Shown here: in pieces, positions 21,140 to 32,199 of the stretch
How positions within the stretch are numbered: position 1 is the first letter of the stretch
How the letters are laid out: every line of letters starts with the position of its first letter
From: an uncultured Chloroflexia bacterium
Lineage (GTDB): Bacteria > Chloroflexota > Limnocylindria > Limnocylindrales > CSP1-4
Length of the DNA stretch: 64,000 bases
Direction of reading: 5' to 3'
NCBI GenBank assembly: GCA_963813535.1
Contig: CAWEZH010000002.1
Location: 544,001-608,000, forward strand
Position numbers and translations under genes: made by a program
Notes under the pieces: generated by a model
The model's input: the letters and a program-made list of their open reading frames with translations, nothing else
What the model was told of the DNA's origin: nothing
Database searches by the model: none

Positions 21140-21649
21140 ATGACCGCACGGACCGACCGGATCGATCAGCTGTTGCGTGAGGAGATCGGCTCGATCGTGG
21201 CGCGGGACGTGGCGGATCCACGGATCGGGTTCGCCACGATCACCAAGGTCGAGACGACCCCGGACTTGCGGCATGCCAGGGTGTGGGTGAGCGTCATCGG
21301 GCAGCCGAAGGAACGCTCGCAGACCATCGCGGCACTCGGCCGCGCCATGCCGTTCGTCCGCCACGAGCTCGGCAGGACGCTGCGCCTGAAGCGGATCCCC
21401 GATCTCCACGTGGAGCTCGACGACACCGCCGAACGGGGGACACGCGTGATGCATCTCCTCGACGAGCTTCGGGAGGGGAGCGCGCCCGAGGAGGACCTGC
21501 CGCTCGGCGAGACATTGCCGACGCCGGTCCCCCGGGTCCAACACGACGGCGATACGACCGAGGAGCCACCCTCCGCGGTGATCCCGCCCAAGCCGCGCAA
21601 GCGCCGCGGCCGGGCACTCGTCCAGCGCACGAGCCGGCGGCAGCGATGA
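21140..21649 (+). CDS. rbfA: Ribosome-binding factor A
   Basis: RTDRIDQLLREEI, DPRI, TPDLRHARV, LRLKRIPDL. Confidence 0.96.
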   Translation: MTARTDRIDQLLREEIGSIVARDVADPRIGFATITKVETTPDLRHARVWVSVIGQPKERSQTIAALGRAMPFVRHELGRTLRLKRIPDLHVELDDTAERGTRVMHLLDELREGSAPEEDLPLGETLPTPVPRVQHDGDTTEEPPSAVIPPKPRKRRGRALVQRTSRRQR

Positions 21650-22662
21650 CGGTGGATCTCACGCCCTTCCTCGGTACCGTGCCGGACGTCGTCGTCGAGC
21701 GGATCCGCACCGCCAAGCGCGTGCTGGCCGTCGGTCACGAGAACCCCGATGCGGACACGGTCGGGGCAAGCCTCAGCGTCGTCCGCATCATCGAGCGGTT
21801 CGGTGGCACGGCGGATCCTGTCTGCAGCGACCCCGTGCCGCCGCATTACGACTTCCTCGAGGGCGTGGAACGGTTCCGGACGGACCCGGACCCGGACGCC
21901 GACTACGACCTGCTCGTTGTCTCCGATTGCGCTACGTTCGATCGCGTCGGGGCCGTGGGCGAGCGTCACCGCGACCTGTTCGACCGCCTGCCGCGCGTCG
22001 TCATCGACCACCACGCGTCGAACGAGGCACTCGCCGAAGCCGACTGGATCGAGCCGGACGCCGCGGCGACCTGCGAGATGGTGGCGCTGCTGGCGACGTG
22101 TCTCGGCATCCCGCTCGAATCGGAACCGGGGCTCGCGACCGCGTTGATGGCCGGCATCGTGATGGACACCGCGACCTTCGCGCATCCGAACGCGACGCCG
22201 CGGACACTGGCGGTCTCGGCGGCCCTTCTGGAGGCCGGTGCGCCGCTCTCCGAGATCTCCCGTCGCCTGTATCGCTCGAAGCCGGCCGAGCAACTGCGTC
22301 TCTTCGGACGGGTCCTCGATCGGATGGAGACCTTCGACGAGGGGCGGGTCGTCGCCTCGACGCTGTTCGATTCCGACGTCAAGGCGGTCGGGGCCGCGCC
22401 GCCGCACTCGGAAGGGATCATCGACATGCTGGCGCAGGCGGATGGCGCCGAGGTGGCGATCCTGTTCAAGGAGGCGGGCGAGGCGACTCGCATCAGCGTC
22501 CGGACCAAGCCCGGTGGCGTCGATGCGACCGTCCTCACCGGGCTGTTCGGCGGCGGCGGGCATGCACGGGCGTCGGGTGCGACCGTGCAGCTTCCGATCG
22601 ATCGGGCGCACGACGCCGTGCTTGCCGAGGCTCGAAAGGCCGCGGCGGCCGTCGCGCGCTGA
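21646..22662 (+). CDS. nrnA: DHH/DHHA1 phosphoesterase (NrnA nanoRNase/pAp phosphatase)
   Basis: HENPDAD, IDHH, DTATF, GGGGHARASG. Confidence 0.9.
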   Translation: MTVDLTPFLGTVPDVVVERIRTAKRVLAVGHENPDADTVGASLSVVRIIERFGGTADPVCSDPVPPHYDFLEGVERFRTDPDPDADYDLLVVSDCATFDRVGAVGERHRDLFDRLPRVVIDHHASNEALAEADWIEPDAAATCEMVALLATCLGIPLESEPGLATALMAGIVMDTATFAHPNATPRTLAVSAALLEAGAPLSEISRRLYRSKPAEQLRLFGRVLDRMETFDEGRVVASTLFDSDVKAVGAAPPHSEGIIDMLAQADGAEVAILFKEAGEATRISVRTKPGGVDATVLTGLFGGGGHARASGATVQLPIDRAHDAVLAEARKAAAAVAR

Positions 22663-25444: not shown

Positions 25445-25509
25445 GACCGCAGGATAGTCGAGCGTGCGGGCGACACGGGTCCGCGCGCGTGGCGCGTTCC
25501 GGGTCGCTC

Positions 25510-25518
25510 TGCTACCAT
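25510..25518 (+). promoter_or_regulatory. Extended -10 promoter (TGCTACCAT) for rpsO-pnp
   Basis: TGn-TACCAT about 50 nt before rpsO. Confidence 0.5.
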
Positions 25519-25568
25519 CCGCCGGTCATAGAGGTAGAAAGAAGCAACAGTTCGTGTCGGAGGACCGA

Positions 25569-25838
25569 GTGCCGCTCGCGCGGGAACAGAAGCAGGAGAT
25601 CATCGTCGGGTACGCCACAAAGGATGGCGATACCGGCTCGCCGGAGGTCCAGATCGCGCTCTTGACCGAGCGCATCAAGGAGCTCACGGACCATCTTCGA
25701 CGCTTCCCCAAGGACAACCATTCGCGTCGCGGCCTCCTCAAGCTCGTCGGCCAGCGCCGCCGCCTTCTCGCGTATCTCATGAAGAAGGACAGCGCGCGCT
25801 ACCGGACCGTCATCGGACGGCTCGGACTCCGCCGCTAG
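25569..25838 (+). CDS. rpsO: 30S ribosomal protein S15
   Basis: [33 protein letters not shown]; GGAGG before GTG. Confidence 0.98.
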
Positions 25839-25959: not shown

Positions 25960-28548
25960 TTGTCTCAGACATTCGAGACACAGCTCGGTGGTCGCACGCT
26001 GACCATCGAGACCGGCAAGCTCGCACGGCTCGCCGGCGGCTCCGTCACCGTCCGCTACGGCGACACCATGGTGCTCGGCACCGCCAACCGCTCCGAGCCG
26101 CGGCCCGGGCTCGACTTCTTCCCGCTCACCGTCGATTTCGAGGAGCGCATGTACGCCGCGGGCAAGATCCCGGGCGGCTTCATCAAGCGCGAGGCCCGTC
26201 CATCGGAGAACGCGATCCTCGCGGCCCGACAGACGGACCGGCCCATCCGCCCGCTCTTCCCCGAGGGCTACAAGGACGATGTCCAGCTGGTCATCACGGT
26301 CCTGTCGACCGACCAGGAGAATCTCCCTGACGTCATCGGCACGATCGCGGCATCGACGGCGCTGACCATCAGCGAGATCCCGTTCAACGGCCCCGTCGCA
26401 TCGGTCCGCGTGGGCCGCATCGACGGCGAGTTCGTCGTCAACCCGGTCTTCAGCCAGCTCGCCGATTCGGAGCTGGACCTGATCGTCGCCGGCACGCGCG
26501 ACGCGATCATGATGGTCGAGGCCGGCGCCAAGCTCCTGCCCGAGGACGTGATGGCCGAGGCCATCCTGTTCGGGCATCGCGCCCTGCAGCCGATCGTCGA
26601 TCTCCAGGAGGAGATCCAGAAGGCCGTCGGCAAGGCCAAGCGCATCCCGTACCTCGAGCCGACGACAGGTTCCGTGCTCGAATTCGCCTCCGCGACGGAC
26701 GCGAAGCGAGAACTCGTCGTCATCGACACCGAGACGACGGGCACCGATCCCAAGATGTCCGACCTGCTCGAGGTCGCCGCGGTGAAGGTCAAGGGCACCG
26801 AGATCGTCGATCGCTGGTCGACCTTCGTGAACCCGGGCCGGCCCATCGTCGGCAACCAGATGCACGGCATCACCGACAAGGACGTCCAGGGCGCACCGAG
26901 CCCGCGCGAGGCCGCGGATCAGCTGCTTGCCTTCGTGGGCGAGGCGAAGATCGTCGGCCACAACGTGGGCTTCGACCTCGGCTTCATCGAGGAGGCCAAG
27001 GGCGACGGGTTCCGGTTCCAGCCCGGCACCTACCTCGACACCCTGACCATCGCCCGCGAGGGCTATCCCGGGGCCGAGTCGTACAAGCTCGGTGACCTGG
27101 CGCGCTTCTTCGGCGTCGAACTGAGCCAGGGCCATCGGGCGCTGCCGGATGCCGAGGCGACCGCGAGCCTCCTGATCTGGTTCGCGAACGATCTGCCCGG
27201 CCGGATCTCGACCCTCCGGACGGCCATCGCCGACGCGGTCCGCGCCCAGCGCTCGGGTGGCGATACGACCAGCCTGCTCGAATCGGCGCGCCGCGATGCA
27301 CGCGTGAGCAAGAGCCTGTTCAGCCTCATCCAGAAGAAGACGGTCCGTCAGCTCGTCCTCGACGAGGGCATCCGCATCGACGGGCGCGGTCTCACCGAGA
27401 TCCGGCCCATCAGCGTCGAAGTCGGGCTCGTCCCGCGCGCCCATGGCTCGGGCCTGTTCACGCGTGGTGAGACGCAGGCGCTGACGGTCGCCACGCTCGG
27501 CTCGTCCTCGGACGTGCAGCGGATCGACACGATCAGCCCGGAGACCGAGAAGCGCTACCTCCACCACTACAACTTCCCGCCGTACAGCACGGGCGAGAAC
27601 AAGATGATGCGCGGGCCCAGCCGGCGTGACATCGGCCACGGCCATCTCGCCGAGCGTGCGCTCGTGCCGGTCCTTCCGGACCACGACGAGTTCCCGTACG
27701 TGATCCGTCTCGTCAGCGAGTGCGTGACCTCGAACGGCTCGACCTCGATGGCCTCGACCTGCGGATCGACCCTCGCACTCATGGATGCCGGCGTGCCGAT
27801 CAAGGCACCGGTGGCCGGCGCGGCGATGGGTCTCATCAGCGAGCCCGACGGCCGGTACGTCGTCATGACCGACATCCTCGGCAAGGAGGACTCGATCGGC
27901 GACATGGACTTCAAGGTGACCGGAACACGGGACGGCGTGACCGCCCTGCAGATGGACATCAAGGTCCAGGGCATCAGCGAGGCGATCATCCGCGATGGCC
28001 TCAAGCAGGCCCTCGCGGCTCGGCTCGAGATCCTCGACAAGATGACGGCCGTCCTGCCCGAGTCGCGCGAGGAGATGAGCGACTTCGCACCGCGCATCAT
28101 CACGATCAAGATCAACCCGGAGAAGATCCGCGACATCATCGGCAAGGGCGGCTCCATGATCCGCAAGATCCAGGAGGAGACCCAGACCGAGATCAACGTC
28201 GAGGACGACGGGACGGTCGAGATCGCCGCGGTGTCGGGTGAGAACTCGCGCAAGGCGATCCAGTGGATCGAGAGCCTGACCCGCGAGGTCGAGATCGGTG
28301 CGCTGTACCTCGGCAAGGTCACCCGGATCATGGGTTTCGGGGCCTTCGTCGAGATCCTGCCCGGCAAGGAAGGCCTGGTCCGCATCGGCGAGCTGGCCGA
28401 CTACCACGTGCCCACTGTCGAGGACGTCGTGTCCGTCGGCGATGAGGTGATGGTCGTCGTGACCGAGATCGACCGACAGGGCCGCGTCAACCTGTCGCGC
28501 AAGGCCGCGATGCAGCGCCACCTGGCAAAGGAGCCCGTCGAGGCGTGA
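25960..28548 (+). CDS. pnp: Polynucleotide phosphorylase with inserted DEDDh exonuclease domain
   Basis: RNase PH1 ([22 protein letters not shown]), insert DTE..HNVGFD..HRALPD, RNase PH2 ([23 protein letters not shown]), KH, S1; follows rpsO. Confidence 0.97.
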
Positions 28549-28704: not shown

Positions 28705-29778
28705 ATGCCCAACGTGACCAGCAAACCTCTCACGGTCGCGATCGTCGGCGCTACCGGGGTCGTCGGCGGGACGATGATCCGGATGCTGCTCGAGCGCGAG
28801 TTCCCGTTCGGGGAACTGCGCCTGCTGGCCAGCGCACGCAGCGCCGGCACCGAGGTCGACGTGGCCGGCACGAGACACACCGTGCAGGAAGCGACGCCCG
28901 ACGCCTTCGAGGGCGTCGACATCGCGCTGTTCAGCGCCGGTGGCGATACGTCCAAGGCGCTCGCGCCCGAGGCGGCCAGGCGCGGCACGACCGTGATCGA
29001 CAACTCGAGCGCATGGCGGATGGACCCGACCGTGCCGCTCGTGGTCAGCCAGGTCAACCCGGATGACCTCGGATGGCACGAGGGCATCGTCGCCAACCCG
29101 AACTGCTCGACGATGCAGCTCGTGCCGGTCCTGATGGCGCTGCGCGATGCCGTCGGGCTCGAGCGCGTCGTCATCGACACATACCAGGCGGTCTCGGGAA
29201 CCGGTGGCAAGGCCATCACCGAGCTCCAGCGCCAGGTCGAGGCACACGTCAACGACGAGCCCCTGAGCGCGACGGTCTACCCGCACCAGATCGCGTTCAA
29301 CGCCCTGCCGCAGGTCGATGTCTTCCTCGACAACGGCTACACCAAGGAGGAGTGGAAGGTCGTCACGGAGAGCCGCAAGATCCTGCACCTGCCGGACCTG
29401 CGCATCTCGTGCACAGCCGTTCGTGTCCCCGTCTTCGTCGCTCACTCCGAGGCCGTCCACGTCGAGACCATCGACCCGATCACGCCCGAGCGCGCACGCA
29501 CGCTGTTCGCGGCCGTGCCTGGCGTCGTCGTCCAGGACGATCCAGGCACCTCGACGTACCCGCTCGCGACGCAGGCCGCCGGGAGCGACGAGGTCTACGT
29601 CGGTCGGGTTCGCCAGGACGCGTCGATCCCCGCGGGCCGCGGCCTTGCCTTCTGGGTCGTCAGCGACAACCTGCGCAAGGGCGCCGCCACGAACGCCGTC
29701 GAACTTGCCGAGATCTTGGTCGACCGCGGGTGGGTCAAGGCCGCCGCGACACGGGACGCGGCCGGATCCCCGGCGTGA
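28705..29778 (+). CDS. asd: Aspartate-semialdehyde dehydrogenase
   Basis: VGATGVVG, IDNSSAWRM, ANPNCST, DNLRKGAATNA. Confidence 0.97.
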   Translation: MPNVTSKPLTVAIVGATGVVGGTMIRMLLEREFPFGELRLLASARSAGTEVDVAGTRHTVQEATPDAFEGVDIALFSAGGDTSKALAPEAARRGTTVIDNSSAWRMDPTVPLVVSQVNPDDLGWHEGIVANPNCSTMQLVPVLMALRDAVGLERVVIDTYQAVSGTGGKAITELQRQVEAHVNDEPLSATVYPHQIAFNALPQVDVFLDNGYTKEEWKVVTESRKILHLPDLRISCTAVRVPVFVAHSEAVHVETIDPITPERARTLFAAVPGVVVQDDPGTSTYPLATQAAGSDEVYVGRVRQDASIPAGRGLAFWVVSDNLRKGAATNAVELAEILVDRGWVKAAATRDAAGSPA

Positions 29779-30509
29779 CCGACGCCGAGCGCCGTGCGGC
29801 GCTCGAGGCGATCGCCGCGGAGGTCCGCGATTGCACCCGCTGCCGACTCCACGAGACGCGGACGCACGCGGTGCCTGGCGAGGGCGACCCGTCGACCGAG
29901 GTCGTGTGCGTCGGTGAGGGCCCCGGTCAGAACGAGGACCGGGAGGGCCGACCGTTCGTGGGTCGCGCCGGTGGCCTGCTCGTGAACCTCCTCGGGCACA
30001 TCGGCTGGACGCGCGACGACGTGTTCATCACGAACATCGTCAAGTGCCGCCCGCCCGGCAACCGCGACCCGGAACCCGACGAGGTCGCCGCCTGCGCGCC
30101 GTACCTCCGCCGCCAGCTCGAAGTGCTCGACCCGGCCGTCGTGGTGACCCTCGGTCGCCATTCGATGGGCCGCTTCATGCCGGGCGCCCGCATCTCGCAG
30201 GCGCACGGCACGACCCGACCTGCCGATCCGGCGACGGGTGCCCCCGATGCCACGGTCTTCGCCATGTACCACCCGGCCGCGGCCCTGCGCACGCCGGCGA
30301 TCGAGCGAGAGTCGTACGAGGATGTCGCCCGCATCCCTGGCGTCCTGATCGAAGCGCGGGAGCGCCGCCGCGAGCACCGTTCGGCCGCCCGGGACGCCGC
30401 CCGTGCCGCTGCCGAGGGAGCGGGTGCGGCGCCTCGGACCGCAGCGACCATGGCGAGGGTCGCCGGCGCCGACCCGGACGACACGACCGACCAACTCACC
30501 ATCTTCTGA
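29775..30509 (+). CDS. Family 4 uracil-DNA glycosylase (4Fe-4S)
   Basis: CTRCRL, GEGPG..ED, PFVG, KCRPPGNR, YHPAA. Confidence 0.93.
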   Translation: MTDAERRAALEAIAAEVRDCTRCRLHETRTHAVPGEGDPSTEVVCVGEGPGQNEDREGRPFVGRAGGLLVNLLGHIGWTRDDVFITNIVKCRPPGNRDPEPDEVAACAPYLRRQLEVLDPAVVVTLGRHSMGRFMPGARISQAHGTTRPADPATGAPDATVFAMYHPAAALRTPAIERESYEDVARIPGVLIEARERRREHRSAARDAARAAAEGAGAAPRTAATMARVAGADPDDTTDQLTIF

Positions 30510-30528
30510 CACACACGACAAGGATTTC

Positions 30529-32199
30529 ATGACCACAGACCTCGACACGCCGCTCCGCATCATCCCGCTCGGCGGGGTGGGGGAGATCGGCAAGAACATG
30601 TACGTCTTCGAGTACGGCGATGACATCGTCGTGATCGACTGCGGCCTGATGTTTCCCGACGAGGAGATGTTCGGCATCGACCTTGTCATCCCCGACGTCA
30701 CCTATCTCAAGGAGAACCGCGAGAAGGTCAGGGCGTTCCTGATCACGCACGCGCACGAGGATCACGTCGGGGCGCTGCCCTACGTGTTGCCCGAATTCCC
30801 CGGCGTGCCGATCTACGCCAGCACGCTGGCGCGCGGCCTGCTCGGGAGCAAGATCAAGGAGCACAAGCTCAACAACAACCCGGTCCTGTCGCTCGACCCC
30901 GGCGACGAGATCGACGTCGGTCCGTTCCGCGTCATCCCGTTCCGCGTCGGTCATTCGATCCCCGACGCCATGGGCATCGCGCTCAGGACCCCGGTCGGCA
31001 CGATCGTCCACACCGGTGACTTCAAGTTCGACCACACGCCGGTCGACGGCAAGCTTTCCGACTTCGCGATCCTCGCCCGGATGGGCGCGGAGGGCGTCGT
31101 GTGCCTCCTGTCCGACTCGACCAGGGCCGAGAACCCGGGCTACACGCCGTCGGAACGCACCGTCGGTGAGGCCTTCCGCGAGATCATGGAGCCGCTCGAC
31201 GGCCGGGTGATCGTGGCGACATTCGCGAGCAATATCGCGCGCATCCAGCAGGTCCTCGACGCCTCTGCCGAGATGGGCCGCGACGTGTCGGTCATCGGAC
31301 GCTCGATGGAGCAGAACTTCCGCATCGCAACCGACCTCGGATACCTCAAGTACGACCCATCGAGCATCGTCTCGAAGGACAAGATCAAGGACTACGACAA
31401 CGGCAAGCTCACGATCGCCACGACGGGCGCCCAGGGCGAGCCGATGGCCGGTCTGGCGCGCATGGCGAACCGCGACCACCGGTTCGTCGAGATCCAACCG
31501 GGCGACACCGTGATCGTCAGCGCCAGCCCGATCCCGGGCAACGAGGAGTACGTCTCCCGGACCATCGACAATCTGTTCAAGGCCGGCGCGAACGTGTACT
31601 ACCACACGATCAAGCGTGCGCACGTCTCCGGGCACGCGAGTCAGGAGGAGCTCAAGCTCATGCTCGGCCTGACGAAGCCGAAGTACTTCATCCCGATCCA
31701 TGGCGAGTTCCGGATGCAGGTGCAACACGGCCGCCTGGCCACCGAGACCGGCGTCGACCCGTCGAACGTGTTCATCATCGAGAACGGGACGCCGATCGAG
31801 CTGTTCGCCGACGGGTCGGCCCGCCGCGGGAGCCCCGTCACGGCCGGGTACGTGTTCGTCGACGGCCTGTCGGTCGGCGAAGTCGGCGAGGTCGTCCTGC
31901 GCGACCGACGCAGTCTCGCGAACGACGGCATCTTCATGATCGTCGTGACCGTCGACAAGCAGACAGGCTCGGTGGTCGGTCGACCCGAGATCGTCACGCG
32001 CGGCTTCGTCCACATGAACGAGCAGGATCCGATCATGCATGAGGCCGTCGAGCGGGTCATCGCCGCGATCGACACGCCGGGCGACCACATCAGCGAGATC
32101 GGACTGCTCAAGAGCCAGGTCAAGGAGAGCCTTTCGCGGTTCCTGTACGAGCAGACCAAGCGGCGCCCGATGGTCTTCCCGGTCGTGGTCGAGGTCTGA
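30529..32199 (+). CDS. rnj: Ribonuclease J
   Basis: GGVGEIGKNM, THAHEDH, HTGDFK, HVSGHA. Confidence 0.97.
   Translation: MTTDLDTPLRIIPLGGVGEIGKNMYVFEYGDDIVVIDCGLMFPDEEMFGIDLVIPDVTYLKENREKVRAFLITHAHEDHVGALPYVLPEFPGVPIYASTLARGLLGSKIKEHKLNNNPVLSLDPGDEIDVGPFRVIPFRVGHSIPDAMGIALRTPVGTIVHTGDFKFDHTPVDGKLSDFAILARMGAEGVVCLLSDSTRAENPGYTPSERTVGEAFREIMEPLDGRVIVATFASNIARIQQVLDASAEMGRDVSVIGRSMEQNFRIATDLGYLKYDPSSIVSKDKIKDYDNGKLTIATTGAQGEPMAGLARMANRDHRFVEIQPGDTVIVSASPIPGNEEYVSRTIDNLFKAGANVYYHTIKRAHVSGHASQEELKLMLGLTKPKYFIPIHGEFRMQVQHGRLATETGVDPSNVFIIENGTPIELFADGSARRGSPVTAGYVFVDGLSVGEVGEVVLRDRRSLANDGIFMIVVTVDKQTGSVVGRPEIVTRGFVHMNEQDPIMHEAVERVIAAIDTPGDHISEIGLLKSQVKESLSRFLYEQTKRRPMVFPVVVEV

Follow-up and report, generated by a model that had tools for sequence, protein, structure and literature searches.

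A putative DEDDh exonuclease domain nested within the polynucleotide phosphorylase of three families of Chloroflexota

Polynucleotide phosphorylase (PNPase) is among the best-studied enzymes of RNA decay and, to our knowledge and as far as we could find, it acts by phosphorolysis alone in all cases. The hydrolytic partners of PH-type rings, i.e. RNase R, Orn/REXO2 and, in the exosome, Rrp44 and Rrp6, are separate proteins. In the eukaryotic exosome, a PH-like ring is joined by Rrp44, which is hydrolytic, and by Rrp6 of the DEDD family; Rrp44 sits on the ring face that matches the all-alpha side of PNPase. Here we describe the PNPase of an uncultured Chloroflexota bacterium, in which a hydrolytic-type DEDDh centre is found in the enzyme's own chain. 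The preliminary description of this locus knew of no account of such an architecture, and we found no description in print of a PNPase with a nested DEDDh domain.

The pnp gene occupies positions 25960..28548 of the window, by which we mean the whole analysed stretch of 64,000 nucleotides. It starts with TTG and encodes 862 amino acids in an unbroken reading frame on the plus strand, which is also the strand of rpsO and of the parts of pnp given below. Directly upstream lies rpsO (25590..25838), coding for the ribosomal protein S15 (PF00312 at aa 43-123 of the ORF 25464..25838, E 1.9e-34), which is the normal rpsO-pnp arrangement noted at the outset. The pnp product scores above the NCBIfam cut-offs both for the PNPase equivalog TIGR03591 (949.4 bits, cut-off 525.05) and for NF008805 (943 bits, cut-off 471), the former match being split into two stretches, of which the second places aa 441-849 on profile positions 280-688. 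It is the only PNPase found in the genome, and thus the organism's single housekeeping one, with two of the three genome-wide RNase_PH matches located within pnp.

The order of Pfam domains (PH1, all-alpha, PH2, KH, S1) is that of PNPase, with RNase_PH (3.1e-52) and RNase_PH_C each matched in two stretches. RNase PH module 1 (aa 1-227; 25960..26640; best RNase_PH_C stretch aa 144-208) extends to K227, up to which canonical PNPases can be aligned, and is followed by a variable linker (aa 228-250; 26641..26709). The linker leads into the nested 3'-5' exonuclease domain of the DEDDh (DnaQ-like) type (aa 251-405; 26710..27174), in which PF00929 (RNase_T) matches aa 253-404 (nt 26716-27171) with E 1e-28 and 101.4 bits against a gathering cut-off of 24, covering positions 1-163 of the 164 in the profile. 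What remains of the all-alpha domain (aa 406-470; 27175..27369) comprises three predicted helices (394-432, 436-447 and 451-469, the first of them beginning in the exonuclease domain) and retains just the last third of PF03726 (aa 444-476 match profile positions 48-80 of 81). The phosphorolytic site belongs to RNase PH module 2 (aa 471-700; 27370..28059; best RNase_PH stretch aa 480-613), after which the KH domain (aa 714-771; 28099..28272; PF00013, E 3e-11) and the S1 domain (aa 777-848; 28288..28503; PF00575, E 1.4e-17) complete the protein. The HMM scan thus bears out the in-frame insert between the two RNase PH modules and places it in the all-alpha linker of PNPase.

In the structural model, the nested domain is predicted with a pLDDT of 91.3 (residues about 86-95), with lower values for the linker residues 241-250, and it assumes the RNase H-like alpha/beta fold of the DnaQ type, with Foldseek probability 1.00 to DinG, DnaQ, PolC, epsilon and ExoX, and TM of 0.72-0.79 on single-domain targets. 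About 160 extra residues take the place of the all-alpha domain's first half, and the helix of the ExoIII motif is predicted to run without interruption (aa 394-432) into the rest of that domain. According to PMC2723993, the all-alpha domain of canonical PNPase is located on the side of the ring away from KH/S1, contributes to a side pore, and reportedly affects access to the active site. If the exonuclease site is placed with respect to the channel as this one account of the canonical domain suggests, the trimer would bear, on the face opposite KH/S1 and beside the side pore, three exonuclease modules that hydrolyse in a Mg-dependent manner. Since the all-alpha domain is opposite KH/S1, the parallel with the exosome, which had been drawn with Rrp6, would by position concern the Rrp44 face instead.

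We analyzed conservation in an alignment (A1) of 45 sequences, comprising 41 nested and 4 canonical PNPases. The five DEDDh residues, i.e. D256 and E258 of the ExoI motif (codons D256-T-E258, 26725..26733), D339 of ExoII (26974..26976), and H392 and D397 of ExoIII (codons H392-x4-D397, 27133..27150, at the beginning of the helix 394-432), are kept in 41/41 nested sequences of A1, as well as in two other sets of nested sequences (23/23 and 120/120). In the 23-sequence set, where identity across the aligned aa 228-470 falls as low as 37%, they persist, and the between-family identity in the nested domain is about 37-46%. All the motifs named in the preliminary description, both those of the exonuclease (D256, E258, H302-G303, H334...D339, H392...D397) and those of PNPase (N592-S599, D644/D648/D650/K652), turned out to be invariant or nearly so in A1. 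Residues R555, R556, S594, S596, D644, D650 and K652 of the second PH module, to which we assign phosphate-binding and metal-binding roles on the assumption that they act as in the E. coli enzyme, are invariant in all 45 sequences, including the canonical ones. The insert is under purifying selection (dN/dS 0.09-0.45, median 0.29, in 11 pairs), even though it evolves faster than the PH core (median 0.29 vs 0.15); the linker aa 228-250 shows only 17-30% identity between our sequence and those of family f4 (see below), with dN/dS of 0.06-1.1. The nested domain is very probably a genuine and active exonuclease, and the PNPase that contains it a functional one.

The probability that we are dealing with an assembly chimera or an annotation artefact is negligible. 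The same Pfam architecture recurs in 120/120 of the best database relatives, which come from independent contigs and several sources, and among the 81 genomes of the three families that possess it, 79 contain a full-length copy and one a copy truncated by the contig end (80/81 in total), so that the insert is kept by relatives. Both junctions are bridged by short contigs from three public runs of three studies (X1, X2 and X3): the 5' junction by X1 record 4 (26626-26822), X2 record 19 and X3 record 26, and the 3' junction by X2 record 23 (27084-27332) and X3 records 31 and 32. The frame is unbroken, and the composition shows no shift across the insert (GC 0.66-0.72). An intein, whose termini the preliminary description did not see, or a mobile insertion is likewise unsupported: we found no repeats at the insert borders, the GC content is uniform, and the insertion site is one and the same in the three families. 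The nested architecture withstood all the computational refutation tests named beforehand. An Rfam scan in and around pnp gave no match. Contigs from RNA libraries match parts of pnp, an observation that does not by itself show transcription.

To assess the phylogenetic spread of the nested architecture, we used the junction-spanning segment aa 200-480 as a query against 121 genomes of the class, divided into five families (f1-f5, with our genome in f1). Full-length matches were obtained in 36/36 genomes of f1, 5/5 of f2 and 38/40 of f4, where one of the remaining genomes has the copy cut by a contig end and the other gave no match; the junction-spanning segment was found in 0/39 genomes of f3 and 0/1 of f5, whose PNPases are canonical. 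The architecture is therefore a feature of three families and not of the whole class. The presence of PF00929 in 118/121 genomes, in frames of about 860-1000 aa, had first suggested a class-wide distribution, which we rejected, as the frames in f3 and f5 are DinG-like proteins with an N-terminal DEDDh domain. In the phylum sample, the full-length matches were genomes of the same class (33/33), and in 268 Chloroflexota genomes of other classes no full-length match occurred among the matches listed, which covered query positions about 11-256 (typically about 50-210). A search of a representative database returned 62 matches at E <= 1e-30, of which the higher-scoring ones listed cover stretches of the query that span the junctions, as pieces from the family would. 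No PNPase was found among 10 other matches typed by Pfam (chosen from the best 150 of 30731), which comprised PolC, DinG-like, FAN1/VRR-NUC-exonuclease and multi-exonuclease proteins. The ESM Atlas contains two Chloroflexota clusters with the same architecture (scores 0.79-0.81), which we regard as a lead only. Members of the clade with the nested PNPase have been recovered on many independent metagenome contigs, and close relatives appear in databases under the names Candidatus Limnocylindrales and Chloroflexota.

The phylogenetic trees indicate that the insert was gained once, in the common ancestor of f1, f2 and f4. All 18 inserts fall into one clade of the DEDDh tree (SH-aLRT 95), and in the tree of the PNPase core, calculated with the insert columns removed, f1, f2 and f4 form a clade with support of 100/99. 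Within the DEDDh tree the inserts are placed in a wider DinG + PolC-type group, with weak support (89), and they are not sister to the exonuclease domains of the class's own DinG proteins. That the insert derives from the DinG domain of its own lineage is thus neither shown by this tree nor rejected by the AU test, in which a common clade of the inserts and the class's own DinG domains obtained p 0.43.

By sequence, the insert is closest to the DNA-type exonuclease domains of DinG and PolC. Its best NCBIfam matches are the DEDD exonuclease PRK07883, DinG and PolC; the PDB sequence matches include PolC (2p1j, 1e-22) and DinG (8zef, 5.5e-19), and the best Foldseek match is DinG (8zef_A, 6.6e-12), with PolC (9qpc_A) superimposed at rmsd 1.9 over 164 columns. 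RNase T and Orn are absent from the 25 NCBIfam families shown of the 65 matched and from the 10 sequence matches obtained in the PDB at E 1e-5; in Foldseek, RNase T is a lower match (5e-9) and Orn does not appear. The insert also remains below the cut-offs of the Pol III epsilon equivalogs TIGR01406 (79.3 bits vs 222.7) and NF004316 (71.7 vs 196). The insert, a DEDDh domain as first described, belongs to the DNA-type DinG/PolC/epsilon subgroup rather than with RNase T, Orn or Rrp6. It must be noted that sequence kinship among DEDDh nucleases is a poor guide to sugar specificity. DinG of S. aureus has been reported to degrade ssRNA with Mg, and that of B. subtilis to need Mn (PMC12525004). PNPase is reported to act on 3' ends of ssDNA in DNA repair (PMC2709576 and PMC3241651).

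A search for separate dnaQ, orn or rnt genes, suggested in the preliminary description, found none: the insert is the sole PF00929 match and DEDDh domain in the genome (next best match E 0.078) and the only DnaQ-type domain in most genomes of the nested clade. Pfam detected no XPD/DinG helicase domains in the pnp product, and the DinG helicase domain PF13307 was found nowhere in the genome. The latter is present in 38/39 genomes of f3 and 1/1 of f5 vs 1/36 of f1 (our genome included among those counted), 0/5 of f2 and 1/40 of f4. The DinG-like protein of f3 joins its DEDDh domain to a helicase, and when it was used as a tblastn query against our genome, the pnp insert was the only match. The sister families have no free dnaQ and possess only the DinG-borne domain.

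We lean towards the view that the protein degrades 3' ends by a dual chemistry and has come to fill the role of a DinG-borne exonuclease. In the common ancestor of the three families, a DEDDh domain of the DinG/PolC type would have been inserted once into the all-alpha domain between the RNase PH modules, replacing its first half. With three hydrolytic modules on the trimer, the enzyme would remove 3' nucleotides in two chemically distinct ways, by phosphorolysis within the channel and by hydrolysis on the outside, and the ring together with KH/S1 could make up for the lost helicase as a platform for binding single strands. That the module does the work of the DinG-borne DEDDh exonuclease of the sister families and other Chloroflexota has, in our estimate, slightly less than an even chance; the complementarity between DinG and the insert is statistically weak, since the genomes are related and the pattern reflects only one or two events in their evolution, and the absence of RNase II/R from the whole class (0/121 genomes) would favour an RNA role just as well. 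It is tantalizing, albeit rather speculative, to consider the protein as a ring nuclease that joins RNA decay with the processing of DNA ends and R-loops. In such a scenario the cell's only DnaQ-type nuclease, present as three DinG-type exonucleases on the exit face of an active PNPase trimer, would attack 3' RNA ends in hybrids, ssDNA tails and oligomers left by phosphorolysis, and a helicase-coupled exonuclease would have been replaced by a phosphorylase-coupled one.

Alternatively, the domain could be an RNA-finishing module, i.e. a hydrolytic exoribonuclease for RNA that phosphorolysis handles poorly: the 2-5 nt end products of PNPase (in the manner of a nanoRNase of the Orn/REXO2 type, here joined in cis), RNA whose 3' end is structured, or RNA at low phosphate. 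Such an enzyme would be a bacterial counterpart of the exosome ring with its hydrolytic nuclease. We regard this as possible though somewhat unlikely. The class-wide lack of RNase II/R fits it, as does the failure to find Orn, RNase T or, in our genome, any PF01612 RNase D-type domain, leaving the insert as the single PF00929 match. However, f3 and f5 lack RNase II/R as well and their PNPase is nonetheless canonical, and the nearest relatives of the insert in both sequence and fold are DNA exonucleases. Moreover, a gene for an NrnA-like protein with DHH and DHHA1 domains (21283..22662) lies 3.3 kb upstream of pnp, so that a candidate nanoRNase already exists. On the other hand, PNPase and a DEDDh oligoribonuclease are known to act in sequence elsewhere (REXO2; PMC7261184 and PMC6521605), and the domain would adjoin the pore leading to the phosphorolytic site (PMC2723993).

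It is also conceivable that hydrolysis is not the role of the domain, and that it binds nucleic acids, regulates the enzyme or docks other proteins. The faster evolution of the insert and linker relative to the PH core and the influence on active-site access ascribed above to the canonical all-alpha domain would agree with this; yet the five metal-binding and general-base residues are retained in every nested sequence despite the considerable divergence between families, and the dN/dS of the insert is well under 1, which makes a non-catalytic module quite improbable. We give even less credence to the possibility that the Pol III replicase receives its 3'-5' proofreading from the only DnaQ-like domain of the cell. 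The genome has no detectable separate dnaQ and two genes for the Pol III alpha subunit, and the exonuclease domains of PolC and epsilon are among the closest solved relatives of the insert. However, the continuous predicted helix locks the domain into PNPase, its score for the epsilon equivalog is far below the cut-off, and the sister families manage without a free dnaQ too. PHP domains proofread in some bacteria, and both Pol III alpha genes have kept theirs.

If the nested domain is active, the protein would offer a natural single-chain model for cooperation between a PH-type ring and a hydrolytic exonuclease, would tie the debated role of PNPase in DNA repair to a dedicated catalytic module, and would be a case of an exonuclease domain that has passed from a helicase carrier to a phosphorylase. 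Our analysis also corrects the naming of the nested proteins, whose database labels vary between PNPase and "DNA polymerase III epsilon subunit family exonuclease".

Among the known systems, canonical PNPase (TIGR03591; 7ogm, 4aim, 3gcm, 8wxf) shares with the protein described here the two RNase PH modules, KH, S1, the catalytic residues and the rpsO-pnp synteny, at 37-41% identity and with Foldseek E down to 2.5e-71. It differs in having no DEDDh domain and an all-alpha domain with its first half in place; the best 50 solved PNPases listed have 494-730 residues and are too short to accommodate such an insert. The N-terminal DEDDh domain of DinG (S. aureus 8zef; B. subtilis DinG) ranks first by fold, also matches strongly by sequence and shares all the DEDDh motifs, and in the sister families and other Chloroflexota the nearest relatives of the insert are carried by DinG-like helicases; however, the pnp product has no helicase domain, and the host of the insert is a phosphorolytic RNase ring. 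The PolC exonuclease domain (2p1j, 9qpc) is the closest by sequence and, being nested in the PHP domain, provides another example of a DEDDh nuclease inside a catalytic domain, but its host is a DNA polymerase and its role is proofreading, whereas the pnp insert has no polymerase context. Finally, both in the exosome and in the succession of PNPase and Orn/REXO2, a PH-type ring is accompanied by a 3'-5' exonuclease that works by hydrolysis, and an enzyme of the DEDD family acts with the ring or after it. In the protein presented here, the nuclease is in the same chain, the ring has a catalytic function itself, and the DEDDh domain falls into the DnaQ/DinG subgroup. The likeness to the exosome should be regarded as a functional analogy rather than a homology of assembly.

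The pnp gene (25960..28548, plus strand, TTG start, 862 aa), located exactly as in the preliminary description, encodes a PNPase with a nested DEDDh domain (hereafter, the insert) that is genuine, clade-wide and of single origin, and we infer that its product attacks 3' ends by two chemistries. According to Pfam, the protein comprises two stretches each of RNase_PH and RNase_PH_C, a KH domain (aa 714-771) and an S1 domain (aa 777-848), and the complete RNase_T/DEDDh domain (PF00929; aa 253-404, E 1e-28, scoring 101.4 bits where 24 are required) is indeed nested between the PH modules; the PNPase all-alpha model is matched just at positions 48-80 of 81 (aa 444-476). In NCBIfam, TIGR03591 (PNPase) scores 949 bits against an equivalog cut-off of 525, in two stretches that leave out the insert, while the insert itself matches families of DEDD exonucleases such as PRK07883, DinG and PolC and falls far under the cut-offs of the Pol III epsilon equivalogs. 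The insert does not stand out in GC content, no repeats were found at its borders, and the pnp region has no Rfam match.

The surroundings of this gene, the only PNPase gene in the genome, are ordinary, with rpsO directly upstream, preceded by ribF, truB and, just upstream of truB, a gene for an NrnA-like DHH+DHHA1 protein (21283..22662, plus strand, 459 aa), which is separate from the insert and a candidate nanoRNase or pAp phosphatase. Downstream of pnp lie asd, a gene of the UDG superfamily (29073..30509) and RNase J (30403..32199), the latter two also on the plus strand; here DNA-repair and RNA-decay functions are clustered, which does not imply a shared operon.

The nested architecture is genuine. 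The suspicion of a chimeric assembly was dispelled by short contigs that bridge the insert's junctions on both the 5' and the 3' side and come from three public runs, belonging to three studies, and by database relatives of aa 200-480, a query spanning both junctions: the best 120 of 1572 all combine PF00929 with PNPase domains, at 83-100% identity over the query, and come from contigs of JGI, ENA and NCBI, some named Candidatus Limnocylindrales or Chloroflexota. Members of this single family (P0020-P0118) are called "polyribonucleotide nucleotidyltransferase" in some entries but "DNA polymerase III epsilon subunit family exonuclease" in others, so where automatic annotation lists a dnaQ for these genomes, it may really be the pnp insert.

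A survey of the class with PF00929 yielded matches in 118 of 121 genomes, but the class-wide nested architecture it seemed to indicate was misleading, as part of the matches are N-termini of DinG-like proteins. The survey was repeated with the junction-spanning query in the five families of the class (f1-f5). Full-length matches were found in 36/36 genomes of f1, including the one studied here, 5/5 of f2 and 38/40 of f4 (one further match is ended by a contig end, and one genome has none), and in 0/39 and 0/1 genomes of f3 and f5. This answers the concern that relatives might lack the insert; the architecture is not a feature of the whole class. In f3 and f5, the query matches the DEDDh part only (37-46% identity), in frames of ~890-1040 aa that also contain a DinG helicase C-terminal domain, and the PNPases are of the canonical type, their frames measuring ~740-750 aa (814 in a single genome). 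Among 301 genomes sampled from the phylum, full-length matches occur in exactly the 33 of the same class (33/33); in the 268 Chloroflexota genomes of other classes, the matches listed, beyond which lie 288 weaker ones, cover the exonuclease part only. These counts include unpublished genomes (G106, G091, G087, G112, G096 and G067 in the class, and additionally G276, G363, G324 and G251 in the phylum sample); dropping them leaves the conclusions unchanged, and they were left out of alignments, trees and models. Among 1.84 billion representative proteins, 62 matched at E <=1e-30, and the higher-scoring matches listed align with stretches of the query that span the junctions, as expected of pieces of the family; Pfam identified PNPase in 0/10 other matches, which proved to be PolC, DinG-like proteins and further exonuclease fusions.

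The catalytic residues of the insert are under selection, judging from sequence comparisons. D256, E258, D339, H392 and D397 are retained in 41/41 nested sequences of one alignment (A1), in 23/23 of another covering aa 228-470 (A2), with identity to the window down to 37%, and in 120/120 database relatives (best of 1572). In A1, which also includes four canonical PNPases, the PH2 residues R555, R556, S594, S596, D644, D650 and K652 are invariant in nested and canonical sequences alike. Pairwise Nei-Gojobori dN/dS values, calculated with our own script for 11 hand-picked, non-independent pairs, range from 0.09 to 0.45 in the DEDDh domain (median 0.29) and from 0.05 to 0.26 in PH2 (median 0.15); for the 23-residue N-terminal linker of the insert, nearly free to vary, they are 0.06-1.1.

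In a tree of 134 DEDDh domains, obtained by a quick search, the inserts of f1, f2 and f4, 18 in total, group in a single clade together with a fragment from the database (SH-aLRT 95). When the insert columns were taken out of the alignment, a careful tree of the PNPase core separates an f1+f2+f4 clade (100/99) from an f3+f5 clade (100/99), and the insertion site is identical in all nested sequences of A1. The simplest history suggested by these data is therefore a single gain, in the ancestor of f1, f2 and f4. The insert clade falls into a weakly supported group (89) with DinG-type and PolC-type domains, which also contains the DinG-like clade of the same class, and a tree forcing the inserts together with the DinG domains of the class was not rejected (AU p 0.43). 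It is possible that the insert was derived from the lineage's own dinG.

In the genome studied here (3.28 Mb, 3 contigs, completeness 92.9%), PF00929 matches nothing but the insert, and when ORFs of all six frames were searched by HMM with no filter, the insert was again the only significant match (1e-62, the next best being 0.078), which answers the earlier question about separate dnaQ, orn or rnt genes: none was found. Neither PF01612 (RNase D/Pol I 3'-5' exonuclease) nor PF13307 (DinG helicase) was detected there; the genome does encode two DHH proteins, including the NrnA-like one, and has two Pol III alpha genes. In the second alpha-type gene (G000:C3, locus L077:589-5058, minus strand, 1490 aa), PF07733 is split, with a stretch at aa 482-662 and another after a gap of ~190 aa (judged from the DNA coordinates), and the PHP match is stretched across 230 residues; the extra segment matched no Pfam family, including those of inteins. 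RNase II/R (PF00773) was found in 0/121 genomes of the class, control genomes being positive in 11/14 by the same search, and the main exoribonucleases appear to be PNPase, RNase PH and RNase J. One f4 genome (locus L010, G012:C27:1-2004) encodes, in a frame of 667 aa ended by the contig, an extra protein that has a HAMP domain and, at its C-terminus, a DEDDh domain; it is unusual for a signalling module to be joined to an exonuclease.

The DinG helicase domain occurs in 38/39 genomes of f3 and 1/1 of f5, as opposed to 1/36 of f1 (own genome included), 0/5 of f2 and 1/40 of f4, mirroring the distribution of the nested PNPase, although very few evolutionary events lie behind this complementarity. 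In f3 and f5, the only or main DEDDh domain is the N-terminus of a DinG-like helicase of ~890-1040 aa (e.g. L012:1477-3465), and according to the PF00929 survey a free-standing dnaQ is mostly not found there, as in the clade of the window. Tentatively, we favour the reading that the hydrolytic module replaces the DinG-borne exonuclease, to which we would give slightly less than an even chance; PNPase has been linked to processing of single-stranded DNA 3' ends in repair by three reports (PMC2709576, PMC3241651, PMC5379764). The main alternative, that the module acts in RNA finishing, would fit the absence of RNase II/R and Orn, but an NrnA-like gene is present separately and the sister families f3 and f5 get by with a canonical PNPase, and we regard this role as somewhat less likely than the former. 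Kinship with DEDDh enzymes does not fix the sugar specificity.

The AlphaFold2 model of the full-length protein has a mean pLDDT of 83.7 (~86-95 over the insert) and a pTM of 0.77; aa 228-470 modelled alone reach 91.3 and 0.88. In both models, the ExoIII helix (aa 394-432) is unbroken and leads into what remains of the all-alpha domain, a three-helix part, and the N-terminal connection is a linker of lower confidence, so the insert seems to be held rigidly on its C-terminal side. The closest fold match of the aa 228-470 model is S. aureus DinG (8zef_A, E 6.6e-12), other top matches being the DnaQ domain 8h2f, epsilon and ExoX; PolC (9qpc_A) superimposes with an rmsd of 1.9 over 164 columns, RNase T ranks lower, and a PDB sequence search agrees.

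The preliminary description knew of no report of this architecture, and our full-text literature searches likewise revealed no PNPase-DEDDh fusion in the titles and opening lines of abstracts, nor did relevant terms occur in the main text of a paper from 2026 on the genomics of these lineages. The solved PNPases among those listed have 494-730 residues and are thus too short for an insert of such size. In E. coli PNPase (PMC2723993), S1/KH and the helical domain are on opposite faces of the torus; the helical domain contributes to a pore by which the active site can be reached along a second path, and it is proposed to influence the passage of NDP and phosphate. By analogy, a trimer of the protein studied here would carry its three exonuclease modules on the face of the ring opposite S1/KH.
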